From Octopus sinensis (taxonomy: Eukaryota): a DNA stretch of 64,000 nucleotides. Location: the NCBI RefSeq assembly GCF_006345805.1, contig NC_043017.1, positions 13,888,001-13,952,000 of the forward strand, in the 5' to 3' direction. The translations under genes and the position numbers were made by a program. The notes under the pieces are model-generated. The model searched no databases and was not told the DNA's origin. It was given only the letters and a program-made list of their open reading frames with translations. Shown piece by piece: positions 4,726 to 47,995 of the stretch; positions within the stretch are counted from its first letter, which is position 1, and every line of letters starts with the position of its first letter.

Positions 4726-7700
4726 GTGAGTAAACCTACGTCTTATTCATATCCAACCCAACTGTGGTTCCAGTAGATCTGTATCTCTTAGTTCTGCATA
4801 CACTTAACCCTTTAGCATTCAGATTACTCCATCAAATGTAAGGGGGTAAAGACCCCCTTCAGTCATGAATGACCATGGGATTGCACCTAGAAAGTTACCC
4901 TCCTAGACACAAGTCCGGGCGAGGTTGTTTATGGAAGACCAGCAGTCGCCCATGCATACCGGCCTCCCCTCTCCATGCCACCAGTGTTATCCAAGGGAAA
5001 GACAAAGGTCGATACAGCTTGGCACCTGTGACATCGCAACTCATTTCTACAGCTAAGTGAACTGGAGCAACGTGAAATAAAGTGCCTTGCTCGAGAACAC
5101 AACACGCAGCCCGGTCCGGGATTCGAGCTCACAACCTCATGATCGTAAGCTCGACGCTCTAACCACTGAGCCATGTGCCTTCACGCATGGCTCAGTGTAA
5201 TGCTTATTTATTCACATAGTTTTGAATTAATCGTACGTTACTTCATAGTTATGAAATTTTGATGATGTGATTGTTTACTTTGTGGCATTAGGAAGGCAAA
5301 CCAACTCAGACTGGAACCCGGTGCAGACTGGAACCCGGCTTGCCACTAAGCATTTTGCCTGGCATGCTAATGATTCTGCCAGCTTCCGCCTTATTCAGAA
5401 CAAATATTACCAAATATTTTATCTGACTCTCTAAAGATTCTACAAATGTATTGTTTGTGAGTGAGATTTAGCTGTTATTTCTAGTAGAGATGCAATCTCC
5501 TTTATTGACTCCAGTTAAAACTCATTCCATGGGATGCATTCAAATATTTTATCCAATGTCTTACAGATGCTTCCAATTCTGTCATTTATATAAGAATTAT
5601 TGTATTTTATTGTATTTTTGCTTTATTTCACGTTTTTTTAAATTTTCTGTTGTTAGGAATCTGGGCTGATCCCGAGAGTGATGAAGAAGAAGAACGGCCA
5701 AGGTTTGGTAAGACAGGCGGTGCTATGTCTAGTAATGACTATACCATGAATTTTGTGAGTGGTGGCTTGAAACAGGAGGAGAAGTTACCTCAGAAAGATG
5801 ATATGGTAAATAATTATTGAGTTTGTTAAGGGTTTTTGTGGCTTTTTGTTGGTTGTTGTTGCTGTTGTTTAATCCCAGGTCAGTCCTGATCAAGCAGATA
5901 TATAACCAAAAGGGTTCCAGCTATGATCATTCCACCTTTTCGTAATATGTAGAACTATGTTATCAAAAGCGTCCCTTAATCATTCAACTCAGTAGGTTGT
6001 GATTTTAGGGAGACTGGGTAGTTGAGTGGTTGAGTGCTCACTTTGAGGGCCCCTCATTTGGAGCTTGTGATGGGAAAGAGAGAGGGAGAGAGGAGAGAGC
6101 TAAAAAGAGAAGAGAGAGGGAGAGCTAGAAAAATAGAGAGAGAGAGAGAGAGAAAGGAAAAAGAAGATGGGAGATGTATGATTGGTGATGACAATGTTAA
6201 AGTAAGTGGTTGGAGTTAGTATTGTTCAAAGTCTATCACCCTGAACATTGTTGTGTGATTTTTGGATAAGACTCTACTCATCTAAACCAAGCTGCGTCTG
6301 TCCTCACCCCAGGTGCACACCCACTATTCTCAGATTTTCTTGAAAGGCAATGTGTACCACACCCTTCCTCCAGATCATCATGGTAGTGGTTGATTAATGT
6401 CCTCCTTCCCATGCTGGTGTAGGTTAGACAGGTTGACAAGAGCTGGCAAGCCAGAGGACTGTGCCAATCTCTGATGTCTACTTCAACATGGTTTCTGTGA
6501 TTGGATGACCTTAATGTTAACCACTTCACAAAGTGTACTGCATTCTTTTTTTATGTGGCACTGGTACTCGTTACGGCGGTGAGCTGGCAGAATGGTTAGC
6601 ACGCCGGGCGAAATACTTAGCGGTATTTCGTCTGCCGTTACGTTCTGAGTTCAAATTCCGCCGAGGTCGACTTTGCCTTTCGTCCTTTCGGGGTCGATTA
6701 AATAAGTACCAGTTATGCACTGGAGTTGATGTAATCGACTTAATCCCTTTGTCTGTCTTTGTTTGTCCCCTTTGTGTTTAGCCCCTTGTGGGTAGTAAAG
6801 AAATAGATTGACAAGAGCTGGCAAGCCAGAGGACTGTGCCAATCTCCAATGTCTACTTCAACATGGTTTCTGTGGTTGGATGACCTTAATGTCAACCCCT
6901 TTACAAAGTGTATTGCATTCTTTTTTTATGTGGCACTGGTACTCGTGAAGCCACCGAGTAATTGCCATGACAAGACTCCTTGACTAAGGTTGATGTAGTA
7001 TTGAAATGGCTTTATACCAGGTGACAGAGGTTAATGTATGATAGAGGGACACATTCTGGTGTCTTGCTGTGTGGGAGATCTATGGTTACCTCAGTTGGAA
7101 TAGAAAGAAGGTGGTGAGGAAGAGGTGTCAGTGGGGGTACCTTCAGGCTACAGCAGAGTAAATATAAGGGGTCCAGAAAATCTGGACAGGAAGAATGGTT
7201 AGGTAAGTTCATGAGTATGTGAAAGGAGAGTGGCAGATGGATAGAGATGAAAATGGCAGTGAATAAAAATCACAAGTATGGCTGTGTGGTAAGAATCTTC
7301 AGGTTCAATCCCACCGTGTTTGTTCAGTGTTCAATTATTGTTGATGTTGGTATAATTCCTTCATCATCTCTCTTCTGTCATTATCATCATCATCATCATT
7401 TACCATCTGCTTTTCATGCTAGCATGGGTTGGATGATTTGACTGAGGTCTGGCGAACCAGATGGCTGCACTAGGCTCCAATCTTGATCTGGCAGAGTTTC
7501 TACAGCTGGATGTCCTTCCGAACGCCAACCACTTTGAGAGTGTAGTGGGTGCTTTTACGTGCCATCGGTTCTTTTTTTTTTTGACTTGTTTCAGTCATTT
7601 TGACTGCGGCCATGCTGGAGCACTGCCTTTAGTTGAGCAAATCGACCCCGGGACTTATTCTTTGTAAGCCCAGTACTTATTCTATCGGTCTCTTTTGCCG

Positions 7701-7818: not shown

Positions 7819-10800
7819 GACAGGCTTCTTTCAGTTTCCGTCTACCAAATCCTCTCACAAAGCATTGGTCGGCCCGGGGCTATAGCAGAAGGCACTTGCC
7901 CAAGATGCCATGCAGTGGGACTGAACCCGGAACCATGTGGCTGGTTAGCAAGCTACTTACCACACAGCCACTCCTGCGCCTGTATAGAGTTAATAAATGA
8001 TTTACCTGTAATATACTTTAGGTCAGTTCATTTCACTATATTCCTCACCCCTTGTCTTTGTTTTTTTTTTCTTTCTAGGATTCAGAAGATGATTCTGAAG
8101 AAGAAACTGCTGTGAAGGTTCCACAAAAGAAGAAAGTTCCTCTCAAGGCACCACCACCAAGAAGGTTTGCTGGAAGTAAAGATTTTGAAAGGTATGATTG
8201 CAATTAAGAGATAAAAGCTGTGGGGCAGGTGACCTGTCATGAAGTGAGTGGGTGTGTGTGGAGAACAAGTGGTGGTGTAGTGGGGCCAGTGACCTGTGGG
8301 GAGGGGGGGACAGATAATATGTGGCTGATTATTCCCCAGACATGCACTTCCTTAACCCTTTAGCATTTAAACCGGCCATATCCGGCCAAAAGTATTCTGC
8401 CTGTTTTAGGTTCAAACTGGCCAGATCTGGTCTCTCACACCAACCCTACAATGTCATTTTAAAAATTAACAGCTACCTCATCAAAATCTCATAGCTACAA
8501 GATAATGCAGGATTAGTTCAAGACAAGGTGGATGAAGAAGCATTAATTTTGGCAGAATAATGCGAACACTAAAGGGTTAATGTAATTTTCAATCAGGATC
8601 ATAAAGGCATGACATGTGACAAGGCTGTACTCTTGAATTACAGGTAAGGTCTCTCTGGTTGTTTGGATGCTACCTTGGATTGTCATCAGTTTCGTTCAGC
8701 AATTGAGTTCAAATGCCACTGAGGTTGAGTTTACCTTTCATCTTTTTGTGGGGGTCAATAAGTACCAGTTGAGCACTGGTACTTCCTCTGAAATTACTGG
8801 CCATATGCCAAAACTTGTGTGTATGTAAAAGGGAGGTATGTGAATGTTTGTGTGTGTGTGTGTCCAATGGAAGTGGGATGGTGAACATTCAATGCTGAAA
8901 GGGAAATTCAAACAGCGTTTCAACTCTGAGTATGTATGTATGTGTGTTTGTGTGTGTGTGTCCAATGGAAGTGGGATGGTGAACATTCAATGCTGAAAGG
9001 AAAATTCAAACAGCATTTCAACTCTGAGTATGTATGTATGTATGTGTGTGTGTGTGTACAAGGGAAATATGTGAATGTTTGTATGTGTGATTATTACGTA
9101 CCTTATTTTGTACCTTATTTGTATATAAGATACTACAATTAGCCGCCAGTTTTAACGGCACTGGGCCAGCTAGTAAATATTATATTTAACATAGTAATTG
9201 GAAAGCTAAAGGGTTAAAGATATAAATGTGGCTAACGGGAGGTAATTCTCTAAAATTATTCAAACTCAAAATCATTTCAATATTTAGAGATTGATTGAAT
9301 GAGTAGGAGACAGTGTGTTGGATTTGTTATAAATAAATGACTAAAAACCTTGGTGGTAATACCTCGGCATGGCCACAGTCACATAACTGAACTAGATCAT
9401 CATCATCATCATCATTATCATTTAACGTCCGTTCTCCACGCTAGCACGGGTTGGATGATTCGACTGGGGTCTGGGAAGCCAGGAGGCTGCACCAAGCTCC
9501 AGTCTGATCTGGCAGTGTTTCTACAGCTGGATGCCCTTCCTAACGCCAACCACTCCGTGAGTGTAGTGGGTGCTTTTTACATGCCACCGGCACAGGTGCC
9601 AGGGGAGGCTGGCAGTGGCCACGATTGGCTGGTGCTTTTTACGTACCACCAGCACAGAAGCCAGTCAAGGCGGCGCTGGCATCGGCCACGTTCAGATGGT
9701 GCTTTTTACGTGCCACCGGCACAGGTATCGCAACTACTATTTCCATTATATATTTATTTCGATGTTGATGTACTTGACTCAATAGGTCTCCTCAAGCACA
9801 GCAGGTCATGTACCACTGGAAAATAATAAAATGTGTTTGTGTTAAATGGAAATAGATCTACACTCCTTCCACCTTCCTCAGTTCATTTATTGACTACATG
9901 TTTGTAAACCATGTTTTTTTCTGTTTCATTTTATCTTTTTTAGTGATAAAAACTTTGGAAAATGGGAGAAACATACCAGGGGAATTGGTCAGAAACTTCT
10001 GGAAAAGGTAAGTTTGGCTCACAATAATTGTTTTGGTGGTTGTAAAAGTAGTCTTCATCAGTCATAACTAGTTTTATTTTGTCATAACTGTAGCTTTAAC
10101 AGGTTATAATTACAGTCTTTGCTGGTCATAATCATAGTAGCTTTGTTTAGTTATAACTAGGTACATCTTGTTATTGTAGCTTTATCTGGTCATAACTGTA
10201 ATTTTAGTAAGTTATAACTATTACCTTAGCTAGTCATAGTTTTGTCTGGTCATAACTATCGCTACATTGGTTATAACCATAGCTTTATCTTTCATAACTG
10301 TAATTTTTTCTCTTTATCATTAGAGTTATATGTCTTTACTTAACCCTATAGCATTTAATCTGGCCCAAATATTTTACCTGTTTTATATTCAAACTGGCCA
10401 GATCCTACTTCTTACACTACCTTACAATGTTATTTTGAATATATATAATTACATAATCAAAATCTCAGTGCTACAAGGTGATAAATGATTAGTTGAAAAC
10501 TAATGGGAATTAATAAACATTACATTAGACATGCTAAAAAATTAAGAATTAATTCATCCATTTATAGTTTGTTCTGTAAATTCTCTGATGTCACCATCCA
10601 GCAACTAGCTTCTTTTCCTGATAAATTTTAGATGGGTTACGAAAAAGGTAAAGGCTTAGGAAAAACCGCCCAAGGTATCACTGCACCCATTGAAGCTGTG
10701 AAACGTCGGCGCCGTGCTGGGTTGGAGTTCAGTGGCAGTGAGAGAACACAGCAGTCTTTGAAACACTATCCTGTACAAGATTCTGATGAAGAGGAAGAGA

Positions 10801-19523: not shown

Positions 19524-21466
19524 TATGTCAGCATGGAAAACAGATGTTAAAGGGTGACGATGATGATGATATATATATATATATATTTATGTATCTGTCT
19601 TTGCGAGTATATTTGCCTCCCACCATTGCTTGACAGCCAGTAACCATTATTATATAATTGTCTTTTGCCACTGTCGAAATTGGCCTTTGACAATTCTAAT
19701 TGTCAAATTCTCATTGTTAAATCTACACTTAACTGACAACCCCCACCCTTCAGCAAAACGCCACTTTTTCTTTACCTTGGGTAACTCTGAGGTACATTCC
19801 CTACACTTTTCAACTTCATAGTGGACCCTGACAAAATACGTAGACATTTCTGTAACAATCCACCTAAGATCACTGGTACTGAAGAATTTGCATTTAAATT
19901 AAAACCTCAACCAAGATCCCAGAATAATATAAACGATTCTAAGAGACTTCAGTTGGTTGACACCAATGTATAGCAGGTATATAGATTGATGCACAGCTCA
20001 GTGGTTACAGTAGTTGGCTCATGGTCATAATGACATGAGATCAATTCCCAGTGACGTATTGTGTTCTTGAGCAAGACACTTTATTTCATGTTGCACAGCT
20101 CAGTGGTTACAGTAGTTGGCTCATGGTCGTAATGACATGAGATCAATTCCCAGCGACGTATTGTGTTCTTGAGCAAGACACTTTATTTCATGTTGCACAA
20201 CTCAGTGGTTACAGTAGTTGGCTCATGGTCGTAATGACATGAGATCAATTCCCAGTGACGTATTGTGTTCTTGAGCAAGACACTTTATTTCATGTTGCTC
20301 CCATCCACCCAGCTGTCAAAAACGAGTAGTACCTGTAATTCACAAAGGTTAGCCGTTTCACATACTGTATCATGCTGAATCTCCCTTAGAACTATGGTAA
20401 AGATACACATGACTGTGGAGTGCTCAGCCACTTGCACGTTAGTTTCACGATCCGGCTGTTCCGTTGATCGGATCACCTGGAACACTTATCACTGTAACTA
20501 ACAGAGTCCCAGTTTCATATTTTACCGAACATTCTCATAATTATCGTTGCCATTTTAAAAATTAATTGAAACATTTACTCATAGGAAATCATCATCATTA
20601 TCATCATCATCATCATCGTTTAGCATCTGCTTTCCATGCTAGCATGGGTTGGACGGTTCAACTGGGGTCTGGGAAGCCAGAAGGCTGCACCAGGCCCAGT
20701 CTGATCTGGCAATGTTTCTACGGCTGGATGCCCTTCCTAACGCCAACCACTCCGTGAGTGTAGTGGGTGCTTTTTACTTGCCACCGGCACAGGTGCCAGA
20801 CGAGGCTGGCAAACGGCCACGATCGGATGGTGCTTTTTACGTGCCACCGGCACAGAGGCCAGGCGAGGCTGGCAACAGCCAGTGTCTATATAAAAGTGGT
20901 AGAATATATGGACTGGATATGACTGGTTTAAATGCTAAATGGTTAAACCAGTAATTCCCTATCATTTTTTTATTTATGGGCCCTTTTGACCCTTATTTTC
21001 CCAAACCACTAGGCCATTCATCCTCACAATAATTTACCATTAAAATATATGTGTAATAAATTGGTTACACTTCTACAATACATGAAATAATAATAATGAT
21101 CAGATGGTTCTTTTTACGTGCCACTGGCACGGAGGCCAGTCGGGGCGGCGCTGGCAACGGCCAATCATAAATAAAATCATGACAAGAGACAAAAACATTT
21201 TTTAAAGCTGTTTCTGTATTCTTCTCTAGGGGACAAGTTGGAACCTCTCTACGCTCCGATCAGACATAAACTATCCAATGCCCTCAACAAGTGGCATCCT
21301 TCAGACTCGTCTGCTAAAGTTATTCTTCAGCCATGGGTCAGCGTCTTCAAACCAGGTCACATGGAAGGCTTTTTGGTGAAGAACATTCTACCCAAGCTTG
21401 AACTCTGCATGCAGGAGTTTGTCATCAACCCACACCAACAGATCCTTGGTTAGTATATTATTTTTA

Positions 21467-31089: not shown

Positions 31090-32578
31090 CAGTTTAAGTG
31101 CAAAGCAAAGGCTCTCAAAACATTTGTCAGAGAAGTGCTTTATGTTGATGTTGCCGATTTGTTGTCACACTCAGGTGAGAATATGCAACATATAATGGAC
31201 AGATTTTCCACTGCATGTGTACTTTTCGGATTCACAATTAGTCCTTAGGAAAACCAAAGAAATGTTTACTCCCGCGCCAGGACAAACGTAATTCGAACCA
31301 AACATTTTTGTGAATGCAACAATGTTAGACAGAGATACACTATCGTATAGGGAAGAGAAGTGTTGGATTTGGAAAGCTGGAAAAGCGAGTATGGATGGAT
31401 AGAGGTATTTCCTTGCGGCAAAAATCACTGTCTATAAAACGTATGTATTGACAGTGGTTTCTTTATTCGAGTGGGCCACGCATAGGCGTCATATGAAAAT
31501 ACTGGAGAGATTTCACCAAAAGTAATTCAGGCGTATCTTGGGAGTCAAGTGGGAATGTTTCATACCAGATATACAAGTTTTGCACGTGGTACGTGGTAGC
31601 TCAATTGGACAACACATCATTTTGGCTCAAATGTATCTTGGGAGTCAAGTGGGAATGTTTCATACCAGATATAGAAGTTTTGCACGTGGTACGTGGTAGC
31701 TCAATTGGACAACACATCATCTTGGCTCAAATGTATCTTGGGAGTTAAGTGGGAATGTTTCATATCAGATATAGAAGTTTTGCACGTGGTACGTGGTAGC
31801 TCAATTGGACAACACATCCTCTTGGCTCAAATGTATCAAATGTACAAGTGTGGTACGTGGTAGCTCAATTGGACAACACATCATCTTGGCTCAAATGAGA
31901 TAGGTTGGACATGTTATTAGAGTGAAAGATGAGAGATTGCCAAAGCATCTTTTTTATGGTGAGCCCAACTCTGGTAAGCGACAACAACATAAGTCAAGGA
32001 AAATGTATAAAGACTGAAAACCTGAAGAAACTAGATATGAAGAAAAGTGAATGGGAAACTGATGCTTAGGATCAAAATAAGTGGAGGTGCTGTTAGGACT
32101 GATTGCAACGGCTGGGAGAAAAAAATGATTCACTGCTCTGAGCTTTAAAGGGCCTGTTGGAAAGGAACAATCGGAATTGAAATCAACAGTGAATATTGGA
32201 TATGTATTGTGGGATCGTGTTCTGTTGTCAGAAGCAGGATACGTGAATCATATGAAGTCACACGAAAATGGAAATGTCCAGGCAGGTAATCTTGAACTCC
32301 GACCATCTTTTATGACTTGTCATTTGTCACAAAACTTGTAAGACAAGATCTGGACTTAAAAAAGACATACGCTAGTTCACATAAACATTCCTTCAGAATC
32401 AGATTCCAAAGGGCAAAGACGTAGAAGAAATTTGAATAATAGCTGTCACTGCCAGTCAGCAGTTGGTCTTAAAAGTCATTTGAGGGCTCATCAATGGGAG
32501 GATCATGCTGTGTGATGGGGTATGATGCGTGTGTTGAGGGATGGCTATCAGCTGTCAAGAAGAAGCAATCATCATACG
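31090..32578 (+). mobile_element. 5'-truncated RTE LINE (RT end to 3' end)
   Basis: REVLYVDVADL..MQHIMDRFSTACVLFGFTIS; GHVIRVKDERLPKHLFYGE; C-terminal C2H2-like remnants (HMKSH, HLRAH). Confidence 0.85.
31533..31895. repeat. 100-bp tandem repeat, 3 copies plus a partial, inside the RTE
   Basis: gtatcttgggagt.. units start at 31533, 31633 and 31733. Confidence 0.92.
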
Positions 32579-36053: not shown

Positions 36054-36420
36054 TTGTCTGTTACTCGAATCATTTTGGAAAGAAGGTCGGTAGACGAGCT
36101 ATTAATGGATAACAGCACAGTTTTTCGCCCAGAGCAGCTGAGAGAGATGCTTGGGAGATGGAGCACAAGACGCTTCTTCAAAGCTGCATACAGACTAGAT
36201 GGAAACGGCATTGTGGAACGGCACCACCGTACGATTAAAGCCATGTCTGAGAGGAGACGAATCTCCCCTATGGAGGAAGTTTCTTGTATATGTCGCTCAT
36301 GGTAGGGAAAGCCGAAGAGTTGGTCCTGCACAGGACCATATTCCGATACAAATGGAGCGTGGTGCCGTAGCAGCAAGAGGTGGAAGAGGTGGAACCTTCT
36401 GTGCAGGCTAGAGATGAAGT
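36054..36420 (+). mobile_element. Gypsy-type LTR retrotransposon integrase fragment
   Basis: ELLMDNSTVF..FFKAAYRLDGNGIVERHHRTIK = rve core (second D to E). Confidence 0.8.
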
Positions 36421-36875
36421 ATTACTCGAATCATTTCAATTTTCAAAAAAGTTTCCGAGAAAAATGTTCTCACTCTCTACAAGAGGAGACGGGGTAGATG
36501 TAGATGATCAGTATTCTATAGCGAGACAAAGATGAGTACAGGTAACCAGAGTAAGGTCACTAGAGATCTCCGCACAACGACAGCAAAGACATGAAAACGA
36601 CCGAAGGAGAGCTGCTGCACGCAGGGTCAATGAGTCACAAAAGTCATGGGAAAAACGGTTAGAACAATTATGTCAACAAAATGCAATTCGCAGGAGCCAA
36701 GAGTCAAAAAAGGAAAGAGCAAAACGTTTAAAGGTTGCATGACAAGCTGCCAGAGTTGCCAATGAGACAATAGGTCAACTACGTGGAATCTTTGGTAAGT
36801 GTCTTCTATTACAGTCTCAGGCCGACCAAAGCCTTTTGAGTGGATCTGGTAGACGGAAACTGAAAGAAGCCCATC

Positions 36876-36907
<32 letters not shown>

Positions 36908-36914
<7 letters not shown>

Positions 36915-37315
36915 TAACTAGATACAGAGCGCTCAACCGAAATCCAGTATGTATAAAGTTCTACATATTATATTTATGTGTATCTTTCAAATGCCTTCAC
37001 TTTGGCGCGCTGGATTTCGGTTGAGCGTTCTGTATCTAGTTCTGGAAATTGGGTTTTGTAAAAGACAGACTATGCTGATGATCTTGCAGATGTTTACGTG
37101 TCCATATACGTAAATATTAACAAGTGAAACTAATTAGTACATAGGTAATCGTTCTTTATTTCGTATATTTTCATTTGTCTTGCTTATTTTTACACTTTGA
37201 CTTTTTGGTGAATTTTTTCTTGAGAACACATTTTTCGTGGAAAATGGCGATTTTGACGTCTCTATCTAGCATATAGGCTGTCCACTTTTAATGGTCAGTC
37301 CTCTAAATTTTGTAT
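36908..37315 (+). mobile_element. (TA)n-inserted PLE-like fragment with 5' inverted repeat and HHR, nested in a SINE
   Basis: Flanked by (TA)n on both sides, inside the SINE at 36785-37580; ~32-bp inverted repeat within 36917-37041; HHR at 37070. Confidence 0.6.
37070..37144 (+). ncRNA. Type I hammerhead ribozyme motif
   Basis: CTATG-CTGATGA-[TCTTG..ATGTTTACGTG..TACGTAAATAT..CAAGT]-GAAA-CTAATTAG-TA-CATAG: stem I CTATG/CATAG, long stem II, palindromic stem III, GUA triplet. Confidence 0.75.
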
Positions 37316-37885
37316 ATTATATATATATATATATATGTATGTATATATATGAATATATACATATATATATATATATGTGTGTATGTATGTGTGCGTGCGT
37401 GTGTGTGTCTTTGTATCTGTGTTTGTCATCCTTGATAACCGGTGTTGGTGTGTTTACATACCCGTAACTTCGTGGTTCCGCAAAAGAGCCTATAAGTCCC
37501 GAGGGTGAGATTGTTTCACTAAAACCCCTTCAAGGCGGTGCCCCAGCATGGCCTCAGTCAAATCACTGAAACAAGTAAAAGATATTATTTACACATGATA
37601 CAGCAACAATCTTCGCGTTAACATGCAACTAATTAATTAATCCCTTGACGCTACTTCATATGTTGAAACTGTAGTAATAATCAAATCTACTAATCAGCAG
37701 AAATGATTATAATTAATCTTGGGAAATAATTAAACAAATCCAATTTGGGATTATAGTAAATCATTAATTGTTAAAGTTAGATGAACAATGTTAGCTGTTG
37801 GCTGTATTTTTAAGATAACGAGTAATTGGATTAACGAAACCCTTAATGAATGAGCTTATATCAGAGGATGCTGAGATCCAGCTAC

Positions 37886-39345: not shown

Positions 39346-39890
39346 ACAAGGGTTGTTCATTAAAGATTTCCCCTGACCCACTTCTCAAGGACTGGGATAA
39401 ACGAAGCTTGGCATAATTATTAGTCCTTCTCTACATAGCCACCACCAATGGTAACGCACTTCTCACATCACTTTATGCAGCTGTGAAGATCTCGTCTGTA
39501 GAAGTCAGTAGGTTGCGTATGGAGCCAATAAGTTCATCATCCCAAAAGTGTTTCCCCTTCAAAAAAGACTTCATGGATGGAAAGAGGTGGAAGTGAGTTG
39601 GTGCGGTGTCGGGAGAGTAAGGGGGATGATGAAGGATTTCATAACCGTAGGAGTGTGCTTTCCTCTGGGCAACATGCACATTGTGAACTGGAGCGTTGTC
39701 TCAGAGGCAGTGGACTCCTTTGGTCAGCATTTCACGCCTCTCTGCTTTGATGGTATCCCTCAATTTCTGCAGCAGAGAAGCATAATATACCCCATTAACT
39801 GTGTTACCCTTTGCCAGAAAATCCATCAGTACTACTCCATGCTGGTCCCAAAAGTCTGAGCATCACTTTGCCTGCTGATGGTTGGACACT
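39346..39890 (-). mobile_element. Mariner transposase remnant (3' part)
   Basis: HHPPYSPDTAPTHFHLFPSMKSFLKGKHF; TIR-like tacaagggttgttcattaaag at the left end. Confidence 0.85.
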
Positions 39891-47207: not shown

Positions 47208-47700
47208 CCTGTCTCTTATTGTTTTTTTTGCAATTTTACTTAAATACATTTTGCTGTTTTTTAAAAGAAAGAAAAGAAAATTTAGTCATTTAAAAATATT
47301 TTGCTTCTTTTCTTCTCCTCAGTGAAGTTCCTCCAGGGGCAGGACAATTTTTCTTTGTTATTTGAAAATTGCAAAAAAAGGAAACCAAATAACTAAATAA
47401 GTAAAAAAATAAAAATAAAAATGAGAAAAAAATCTAATAATAATAATAATATAATAATAATAATAATAATAATAATATTTAGAAATCATAATAAGCAAGA
47501 TTTTGCTGATAACTTTTCACGTAAGATTAGATGTAAGTCTGGAGAAAGAAAATATGAAATGAACACTTTGAAAAATTGTATGGTTTTTAGGAATGAAGGT
47601 TAATACCCAGGGTGGGCAAAGAATTTACTAATGTTAAAAAGTTACCCATAGACAGTAAACAACATTAAGAACAGATCATGGCTGTGGTAGTCTACTGTTA

Positions 47701-47995
47701 GTTAGGCAGGTACATATAGACAATTAAGTCCATCAGAGATAGATCTGTGTCTAATATTAGTTAGACAGGTACATATAGACAATTAAGTCCATCAGAGATA
47801 GATCTGGGTCTAATATTAGTTAGACAGGTACATATAGACAATTAAGTCCATCAGAGATAGATCTGGGTCTAATATTAGTGAGACAGGTACATATAGACAA
47901 TTAAGTCCATCAGAGATAGATCTGGGTCTAATATTAGTTAGACAGGTACATGTAGACAATTAAGTCCATCAAAGACAGGCCTTGGTCTAATATTG
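47701..47995. repeat. 59-bp tandem repeat, 5 copies
   Basis: gttagacaggtacatatagacaattaagtccatcagagatagatctgggtctaatatta. Confidence 0.95.

Follow-up and report, generated by a model that had tools for sequence, protein, structure and literature searches.

The Insertion and Its Hammerhead Motif

The window, by which we mean the whole 64-kb stretch of Octopus sinensis DNA that was analysed, contains an insertion of ~405 bp that lies between (TA)n runs, interrupts a common host repeat and carries a hammerhead motif. The features are given below in window positions, the unit positions being those of the 533-nt reference unit L005:1271-1803 (see the following section).

36778..36899, no strand: left part of an abundant host repeat, the internal (TA)n of which is the target
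36877-36908, no strand: (TA)16 target, left side
36908..36917, minus: 10-nt stub of the site-B (tail) end, facing outward into (TA)n and ending as in B-ended copies
36916..37012, minus: inverted arm, unit positions 165-262, 95% to the reference unit
37010..37312, plus: direct arm, unit positions 231-533, 94%, ending at site A
37070..37144, plus: type I hammerhead motif, stem I CTATG (37070-74) / CATAG (37140-44)
37075-81, plus: hammerhead core CTGATGA
37082 and 37125, plus: U10.1 opposite U11.1, base of stem II
37083..37124, plus: stem II in two parts (helices of 4 and 13 bp separated by a 2x2 internal loop and closed by a tetraloop), with compensatory changes among copies
37083-86 / 37121-24, plus: proximal helix of stem II, CTTG / CAAG
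37089-37101 / 37106-37118, plus: distal helix of stem II
37126-29, plus: GAAA
37129-38, plus: stem III, ACTAATTAGT, a perfect palindrome
37139, plus: predicted cut after this position, which follows from the GTA triplet
37276..37312, plus: hairpin directly before site A and the site-A end (from the sequence, the end positions and the folded equivalent in L024)
37313-37376, no strand: (TA)n-rich target, right side
37354..37582, no strand: right part of the split host repeat

The flanks of the insertion are adjoining parts of one repeat at other loci (e.g., L002, 1131-1260 and 1236-1483), and the runs at 36877-36908 and 37313-37376 bear out the insertion into (TA)n proposed in the initial annotation of this DNA. 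The site-B stub is joined to the inverted arm via a 2-nt overlap, and the site-A end is one of two fixed 3' ends and a likely start of reverse transcription. This truncated, partly inverted copy (family A, see below) is a dead end: most of unit positions 1-164 are missing, and the type I descriptor found no partner hammerhead for it in the 64-kb window.

The hammerhead motif at 37070-37144 is real. With positions numbered as is customary for hammerheads, it has the type I core (C3 U4 G5 A6 N7 G8 A9, G12 A13 A14, A15.1-U16.1 and H17, with helices I and II), and it is the single match of the type I descriptor in the 64-kb window, compared with 0.01 matches per block-shuffled window (200 shuffles, both strands). 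The initial annotation had placed here, in an element linked to Penelope, a type I hammerhead with an unusually long stem II, a GTA triplet and a stem III palindrome that would favour dimers, and every coordinate agrees with the sequence, including the 4-bp and 13-bp helices of stem II, the palindrome and the triplet. The canonical R10.1-Y11.1 pair is not present in the motif, which has U·U instead. A search with hammerhead models, also suggested in that annotation, gave no support: probably because of the long stem II, none of the Rfam hammerhead models was among the 21 matches at E<=10, which were microsatellite-driven only.

Elsewhere in the window there are a broken mariner-type transposase fragment (39473-39862, minus strand; PF01359, E 1e-12), a short frame at 36054-36305 that is reminiscent of a retroelement integrase fragment and has no Pfam match, and tandem arrays of 59-102-bp units with 95-98% identity (8849-9057, 19990-20298, 31533-31837 and 47690-47994).

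A Clan of Non-Coding Hammerhead Repeats

A DNA search of the 2.7-Gb genome returned 2309 first-look candidates, with 40 scored places at 91-94%. Loci were mapped on a natural reference unit of 533 nt (L005:1271-1803; predicted cut after unit position 360), on which the repeat is circularly permuted, unit position 533 continuing into position 1. The motif of the site-A end had 405 matches genome-wide, and the tail motif had 2414 exact matches (control 0), which led to the homologous families B, C and D. Families A to D are about 60-68% alike, and B, C and D all carry the hammerhead although they were found via the tail and not via the ribozyme. The unit contains no ORF (the longest ATG frame is 34 aa in A and 52 aa in B), and its length is nearly equal in A (533-539 nt) and B (about 535 nt) despite a likeness of only about 60%. 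Contigs of four runs that are presumed, not recorded, to be RNA cover the unit and carry no information on ends, strand or circle.

Family A copies are mostly shorter than one unit, and their tandems are partial, reaching about two turns (more than one turn of the unit is present in L005, L019, L042, L267, L273 and L274). Among the family A arrays examined, none had two intact cores, the closest being L042 with an altered first stem I; arrays proposed from a long-gap pattern were not accepted, the DNA search giving partial tandems only. Family B forms head-to-tail arrays of up to about 17 units, e.g., 16 scored hammerheads at ~533-nt spacing in L131 (C1:95539000-95548999), and because of these arrays the group fits the non-LTR retrozymes. 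It has 884 exact hammerhead matches genome-wide, the pair G10.1-C11.1, a CAATTG palindrome and inverted multi-unit insertions (L131, L133, L134 and L120:6964-8073). Family B is young and is the best candidate for current activity and circular RNA.

Conservation of the Hammerhead and Predicted Folds

Across 34 chosen family A copies, pairing is intact in 93.5% of cells, and both sides have changed in 8 of the 27 pairs; the covariation score exceeded that of all 500 shuffles and of all slid controls, which pair at 49.8% or less. The shuffle test is inflated by kinship among the copies, and the comparison between families is therefore the stronger evidence of selection on the RNA; one stem-I change (CG to UA) may also represent double CpG decay. 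Between families, stem I is fully replaced with pairing retained, N7 takes all four bases while the remaining core is constant, and stem III stays a palindrome or near-palindrome. Among copies, the palindrome is retained through substitutions and length changes, and in the U·U lineages it has been altered on both sides together (CCAATTGG to CTAATTAG). As judged from these alignments, all three hammerhead stems covary, a test on genomic copies that the initial annotation had proposed, and the core holds across families.

Predicted circular folds of the ribozyme strand in three family A copies and one family B copy gave z-scores against shuffles of -6.3, -4.1 and -1.9 (the last an old copy) for A and -6.4 for B, so that three of the four are far more stable than shuffles, the opposite strand folding near the shuffle mean. 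In the predicted circular fold the core is paired to the 3' strand of stem III. For the window motif, the active monomer has only ~0.1% of the predicted weight, and the monomer is predicted to be blocked in an inactive fold; the best two-molecule fold is an active double hammerhead (-44.8 versus 2 x -19.7 kcal/mol), with a predicted 10-bp intermolecular duplex of the stem III palindrome (-9.0 kcal/mol). The double hammerhead was the best predicted dimer fold in 5 of the 7 motifs tested; for the B and D motifs tested, the active dimer was not the best predicted fold.

The U·U Pair at 10.1-11.1

The U·U at 37082/37125 had been read in the initial annotation as a core defect, which a consensus of genomic copies might repair to R10.1-Y11.1. 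The pair is there, but it is no defect of this copy: the genomic copies show U·U as the majority and ancestral state of family A, and it is common to the sister families C and D. Decay of the window copy was therefore rejected as its origin. With positions 10.1 and 11.1 left free, the core had 298 exact matches genome-wide (reversed control 0), and the first 100 listed of these comprised 86 U·U, 5 G·U, 3 G-C, 2 U·G, 2 U·C, 1 A-U and 1 C·U. Fetched copies of family C had U·U in 5 of 5, those of family D had U·U in 29 of 40 and A-U in 8 of 40, and those of family B had G-C in 33 of 33.

A phylogenetic tree was built from 143 copies with at least 235 aligned nt; it includes only 4 of the 33 family B copies, and its family A sample was purposely enriched by 20 hand-picked loci, many of them non-U·U. 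U·U lies at the base of family A and in the sister family D. Three G-C rows (support 100/97) group with U·C and G·U copies in a clade of 11 rows (100/96) that is itself nested in U·U clades; this indicates that G-C was regained within family A. A-U looks derived within family D, with weaker support in the tree than the regain of G-C in A, and some G·U copies may represent CpG decay of G-C. U·U at this position has been published as a natural hammerhead variant (PMC3088659, accessible text), and for the axolotl HHR_Amex2, which has U·U, the accessible text of PMC7229834 gives 22% cleavage of the monomer in an hour and better cleavage of the dimer. With its U·U, G-C and A-U subfamilies, the clan offers ready material for examining whether cleavage is required of these hammerheads.

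Outside the clan, the genome harbours many Penelope-linked hammerhead lineages. In L114 (minus strand, about 5570-5610) and at L116:5631, the pseudo-LTR of an autonomous Neptune-type family with a 775-aa ORF carries a hammerhead that is also U·U; its stem II is short and its palindrome is GTAC. In L104, L107 and L118, PLE (Penelope-type) coding fragments are accompanied by a further and unrelated family of hammerheads, again with U·U, whose stem II has 3 bp and whose stem III is longer. Several other families, in which a long stem II goes with a palindrome in stem III (L120:6736, L114 minus 1385, L117:5966, L140:6841, L109:1849 and L112:880-940) carry A·A, G-C, G·U, A-U or U·C at 10.1-11.1.

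Insertion Ends and the Template

Copies end 3' at two fixed sites ~90 nt apart, site A (unit position 533) and site B (about 85-98), which correspond to the Penelope "tail"; in the accessible text on an anole PLE (PMC11167929), the tail reflects two RT start sites. A TA/CA/TG-type repeat adjoins 196 of the 211 classified 3' ends. The clan therewith carries the PLE signature of two fixed 3' ends (the tail), 5' truncation, an inverted arm and a microsatellite target. We consider it likely (with a probability of roughly 0.7) that the window element is a truncated copy of a 533-nt non-coding hammerhead repeat present in several hundred copies, a probable non-LTR retrozyme copied by a PLE into TA microsatellites.

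Two outward 3' ends were found in 79 of the 153 de-duplicated family A insertions. All 55 classifiable two-armed insertions were A+B, none being A+A or B+B (the other 24 had at least one unclassified end), and in the subset obtained without end-motif anchoring 17 of 17 were A+B. The same holds in family D (11 of 11 classifiable, 7 unclassified), and four family B insertions, by inspection, and the window copy agree with one arm per site. One-armed insertions use site A 39 times and site B 30 times, from which an independent choice of ends would predict A+B in about half of the two-armed insertions.

The two arms came from one template sequence: in L134 (family B) all units of both arms share changes that are missing in L133, and vice versa, and in the tree the two arms of L003, L105 and L107 (family A) are sisters. 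The inverted and direct arms of L133, L134, L131 and L120 are both multi-unit and each ends exactly at A or B beside (TA)n, which points to arrays laid down at insertion. These arms speak against post-insertion local amplification, by which the arrays would be satellites and the dispersed copies their offspring; satellite growth has been proposed for vertebrate retrozymes (Li et al., preprint 10.64898/2026.07.22.740005, accessible text), and homogeneous units within an array would also fit unequal crossover, but for this clan we hold it to be the least probable explanation.

Returning to a retrozyme copied by a PLE, the 5' ends bear on the form of the RNA. None of 100 site-A-anchored segments begins at unit position 361, i.e., at the cut site, and 32 of the 100 read through it, which argues for a circle or an uncut multimer as template and not for a cut linear monomer. 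(An apparent cluster of 5' ends at unit positions 287-297, 6 of 100, was set aside, as the hammerhead-anchored set spreads broadly over 250-297.) The lack of 5' ends at the cut site also fits the main rival explanation, which we regard as rather unlikely, namely that the element is PLE-mobilised with cleavage dispensable, its template being an uncut multi-unit transcript and the hammerhead fold being kept for dimerisation or protein binding. It accords with the weak U·U pair having lasted through three families and, in the accessible texts, with PAc, the one PLE tested in vitro, for which hammerhead mutants had no effect on insertion and unprocessed RNA was the main substrate (PMC11167929), with the low activity of PLE hammerheads (PMC4209133) and with the 8 of 9 Xenopus retrozyme dimers that remained uncleaved in vitro (Li et al., preprint 10.64898/2026.07.22.740005). 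It is, however, hard to reconcile with core bases that are constant across families only 60-68% alike while the free N7 varies, and with the regain of catalysis-favouring pairs at 10.1-11.1 (G-C in A, A-U in D); moreover, the near-identical units of the long family B arrays would arise most simply from a monomeric circle.

Under the retrozyme reading, multi-unit transcripts would be cut by hammerheads that act as dimers via the palindrome, and the released monomer would close into a circle with its core paired away. A borrowed PLE reverse transcriptase/GIY-YIG nuclease would cut both strands of (TA)n and use them as primers on the same RNA, one at site A and one at site B. Synthesis could then circle the unit more than once, and the arms would be joined at short overlaps. 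A stricter version has about even odds in our judgement: twin priming at two sites would be obligate, an RT dimer on circular retrozyme RNA starting the two target strands at A and B, rolling round the circle and producing inverted multi-unit arrays in a single event, and the U·U lineage would have regained a Watson-Crick pair twice. If so, the lineage from U·U to Watson-Crick pairs is a natural series on whether cleavage rate sets retrozyme success.

Autonomous PLEs in the Genome

A GIY-YIG search gave 5029 first-look candidates and three or more Neptune-type families. The genome contains intact ORFs of Neptune type, 775-781 aa long and encoding RT and GIY-YIG domains, in elements that end in (TA)n (we take these PLEs to be Neptune from their cysteine linker). 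No end or pseudo-LTR sequence shared with the clan was found in the 50 GIY-YIG loci examined, which are a small and biased subset of the 5029 candidates. The ends of the clan are marked by a hairpin, TAGGCCACT...ACCCTTATT. A D-type tail near the ORF in L121, considered as a link to a helper, proved to be a separate insertion. In a young Neptune-type family (L112, L119, L120 and L111), an intact ORF of 781 aa is overlapped by a second ORF upstream of it, and the copies have (TA)n at their ends; many identical GIY-YIG matches belong with it, and no canonical hammerhead scored in its pseudo-LTR.

The initial annotation had suggested a PLE pseudo-LTR or a non-autonomous derivative. The latter fits; the former is not supported, because copies extend for more than one turn round the unit and none of the 74 one-armed insertions leads into PLE coding sequence. 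Largely refuted, and very improbable in our view, is the idea that the copies are 5'-truncated 3' ends (pseudo-LTR and tail) of an autonomous PLE, each made afresh. Most A copies are indeed shorter than one unit, and tail, inversions, truncation and (TA)n targets are as in the canonical PLE insertions of PMC8557442 (accessible text). Against this, the tail leads back to the hammerhead and not to an ORF, the number of turns reaching up to about two in A and up to about 17 in B, and the 5' flanks of the 74 one-armed insertions have no common junction sequence (one pair excepted) and no match to six PLE proteins. Nor was a linked RT and GIY-YIG ORF, as expected on the 5' side of an autonomous PLE pseudo-LTR, found among the insertions examined.

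Comparison with Known Systems

Elements of this kind are already known, as PLE hammerheads (PMC4209133) and as non-LTR retrozymes, for which a PLE origin has been proposed (preprint 10.64898/2026.07.22.740005; both in accessible text), and among the Penelope-linked repeats of animals there is nothing unusual about the ribozyme. The accessible text of a recent octopus repeat annotation (PMC13282606) does not mention ribozymes, and searches of the accessible literature turned up no description of the clan or of a strict one-arm-per-site rule; outside of that literature lie subscription papers, Repbase/Dfam and supplements that could list them. What could matter is the insertion record: the interest lies in the end-pairing rule and the series from U·U to G-C, not in the motif.

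According to the accessible texts of PMC7229834 (Cervera and de la Pena 2020) and preprint 10.64898/2026.07.22.740005 (Li, Clavereau and Pollet 2026), the animal non-LTR retrozymes have several features in common with the present clan: a unit that is AT-rich and free of ORFs and contains a single type I hammerhead, head-to-tail arrays (here in family B) and a strongly self-paired circular fold (here predicted). U·U also forms the base of helix II in the axolotl HHR_Amex2. The 533-nt unit exceeds the 150-450 nt first reported but falls in the preprint's range of 51-972 nt. Its stem II is long and built of two parts, in contrast to the canonical 4 bp, and family A consists mostly of dispersed partial tandems, in insertions with PLE tails and inverted arms. 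The PLE pseudo-LTR hammerheads (Cervera and de la Pena 2014, PMC4209133, accessible text) are likewise of type I with a 5-bp helix I, a long helix II, a palindromic helix III and a predicted dimer, whereas in the present element A9 is followed directly by 10.1, U·U replaces the conserved G10.1-C11.1 and no ORF is linked.

Compared with the endonuclease-positive PLEs of Neptune/Poseidon type (Craig et al. 2021, PMC8557442; Frangieh et al. 2024, PMC11167929; accessible texts), the element is non-coding and its tail is about 90 nt instead of 30-40 nt. An ORF-less retrozyme clan that carries the full PLE signature bears on how retrozymes are mobilised and on the meaning of the PLE tail. PLEs are known to form partial tandems and inverted arms, with the tail "often only at one end" (PMC8557442, accessible text), and PAc in vitro showed no difference in start site between strands (PMC11167929, accessible text), whereas the classifiable two-armed insertions of the clan always have one end of each site. 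Two fixed ends, one per arm, hint at how PLEs prime copying, and the strict one-arm-per-site rule yields a sharp prediction that the in vitro system already available for PLEs could address.
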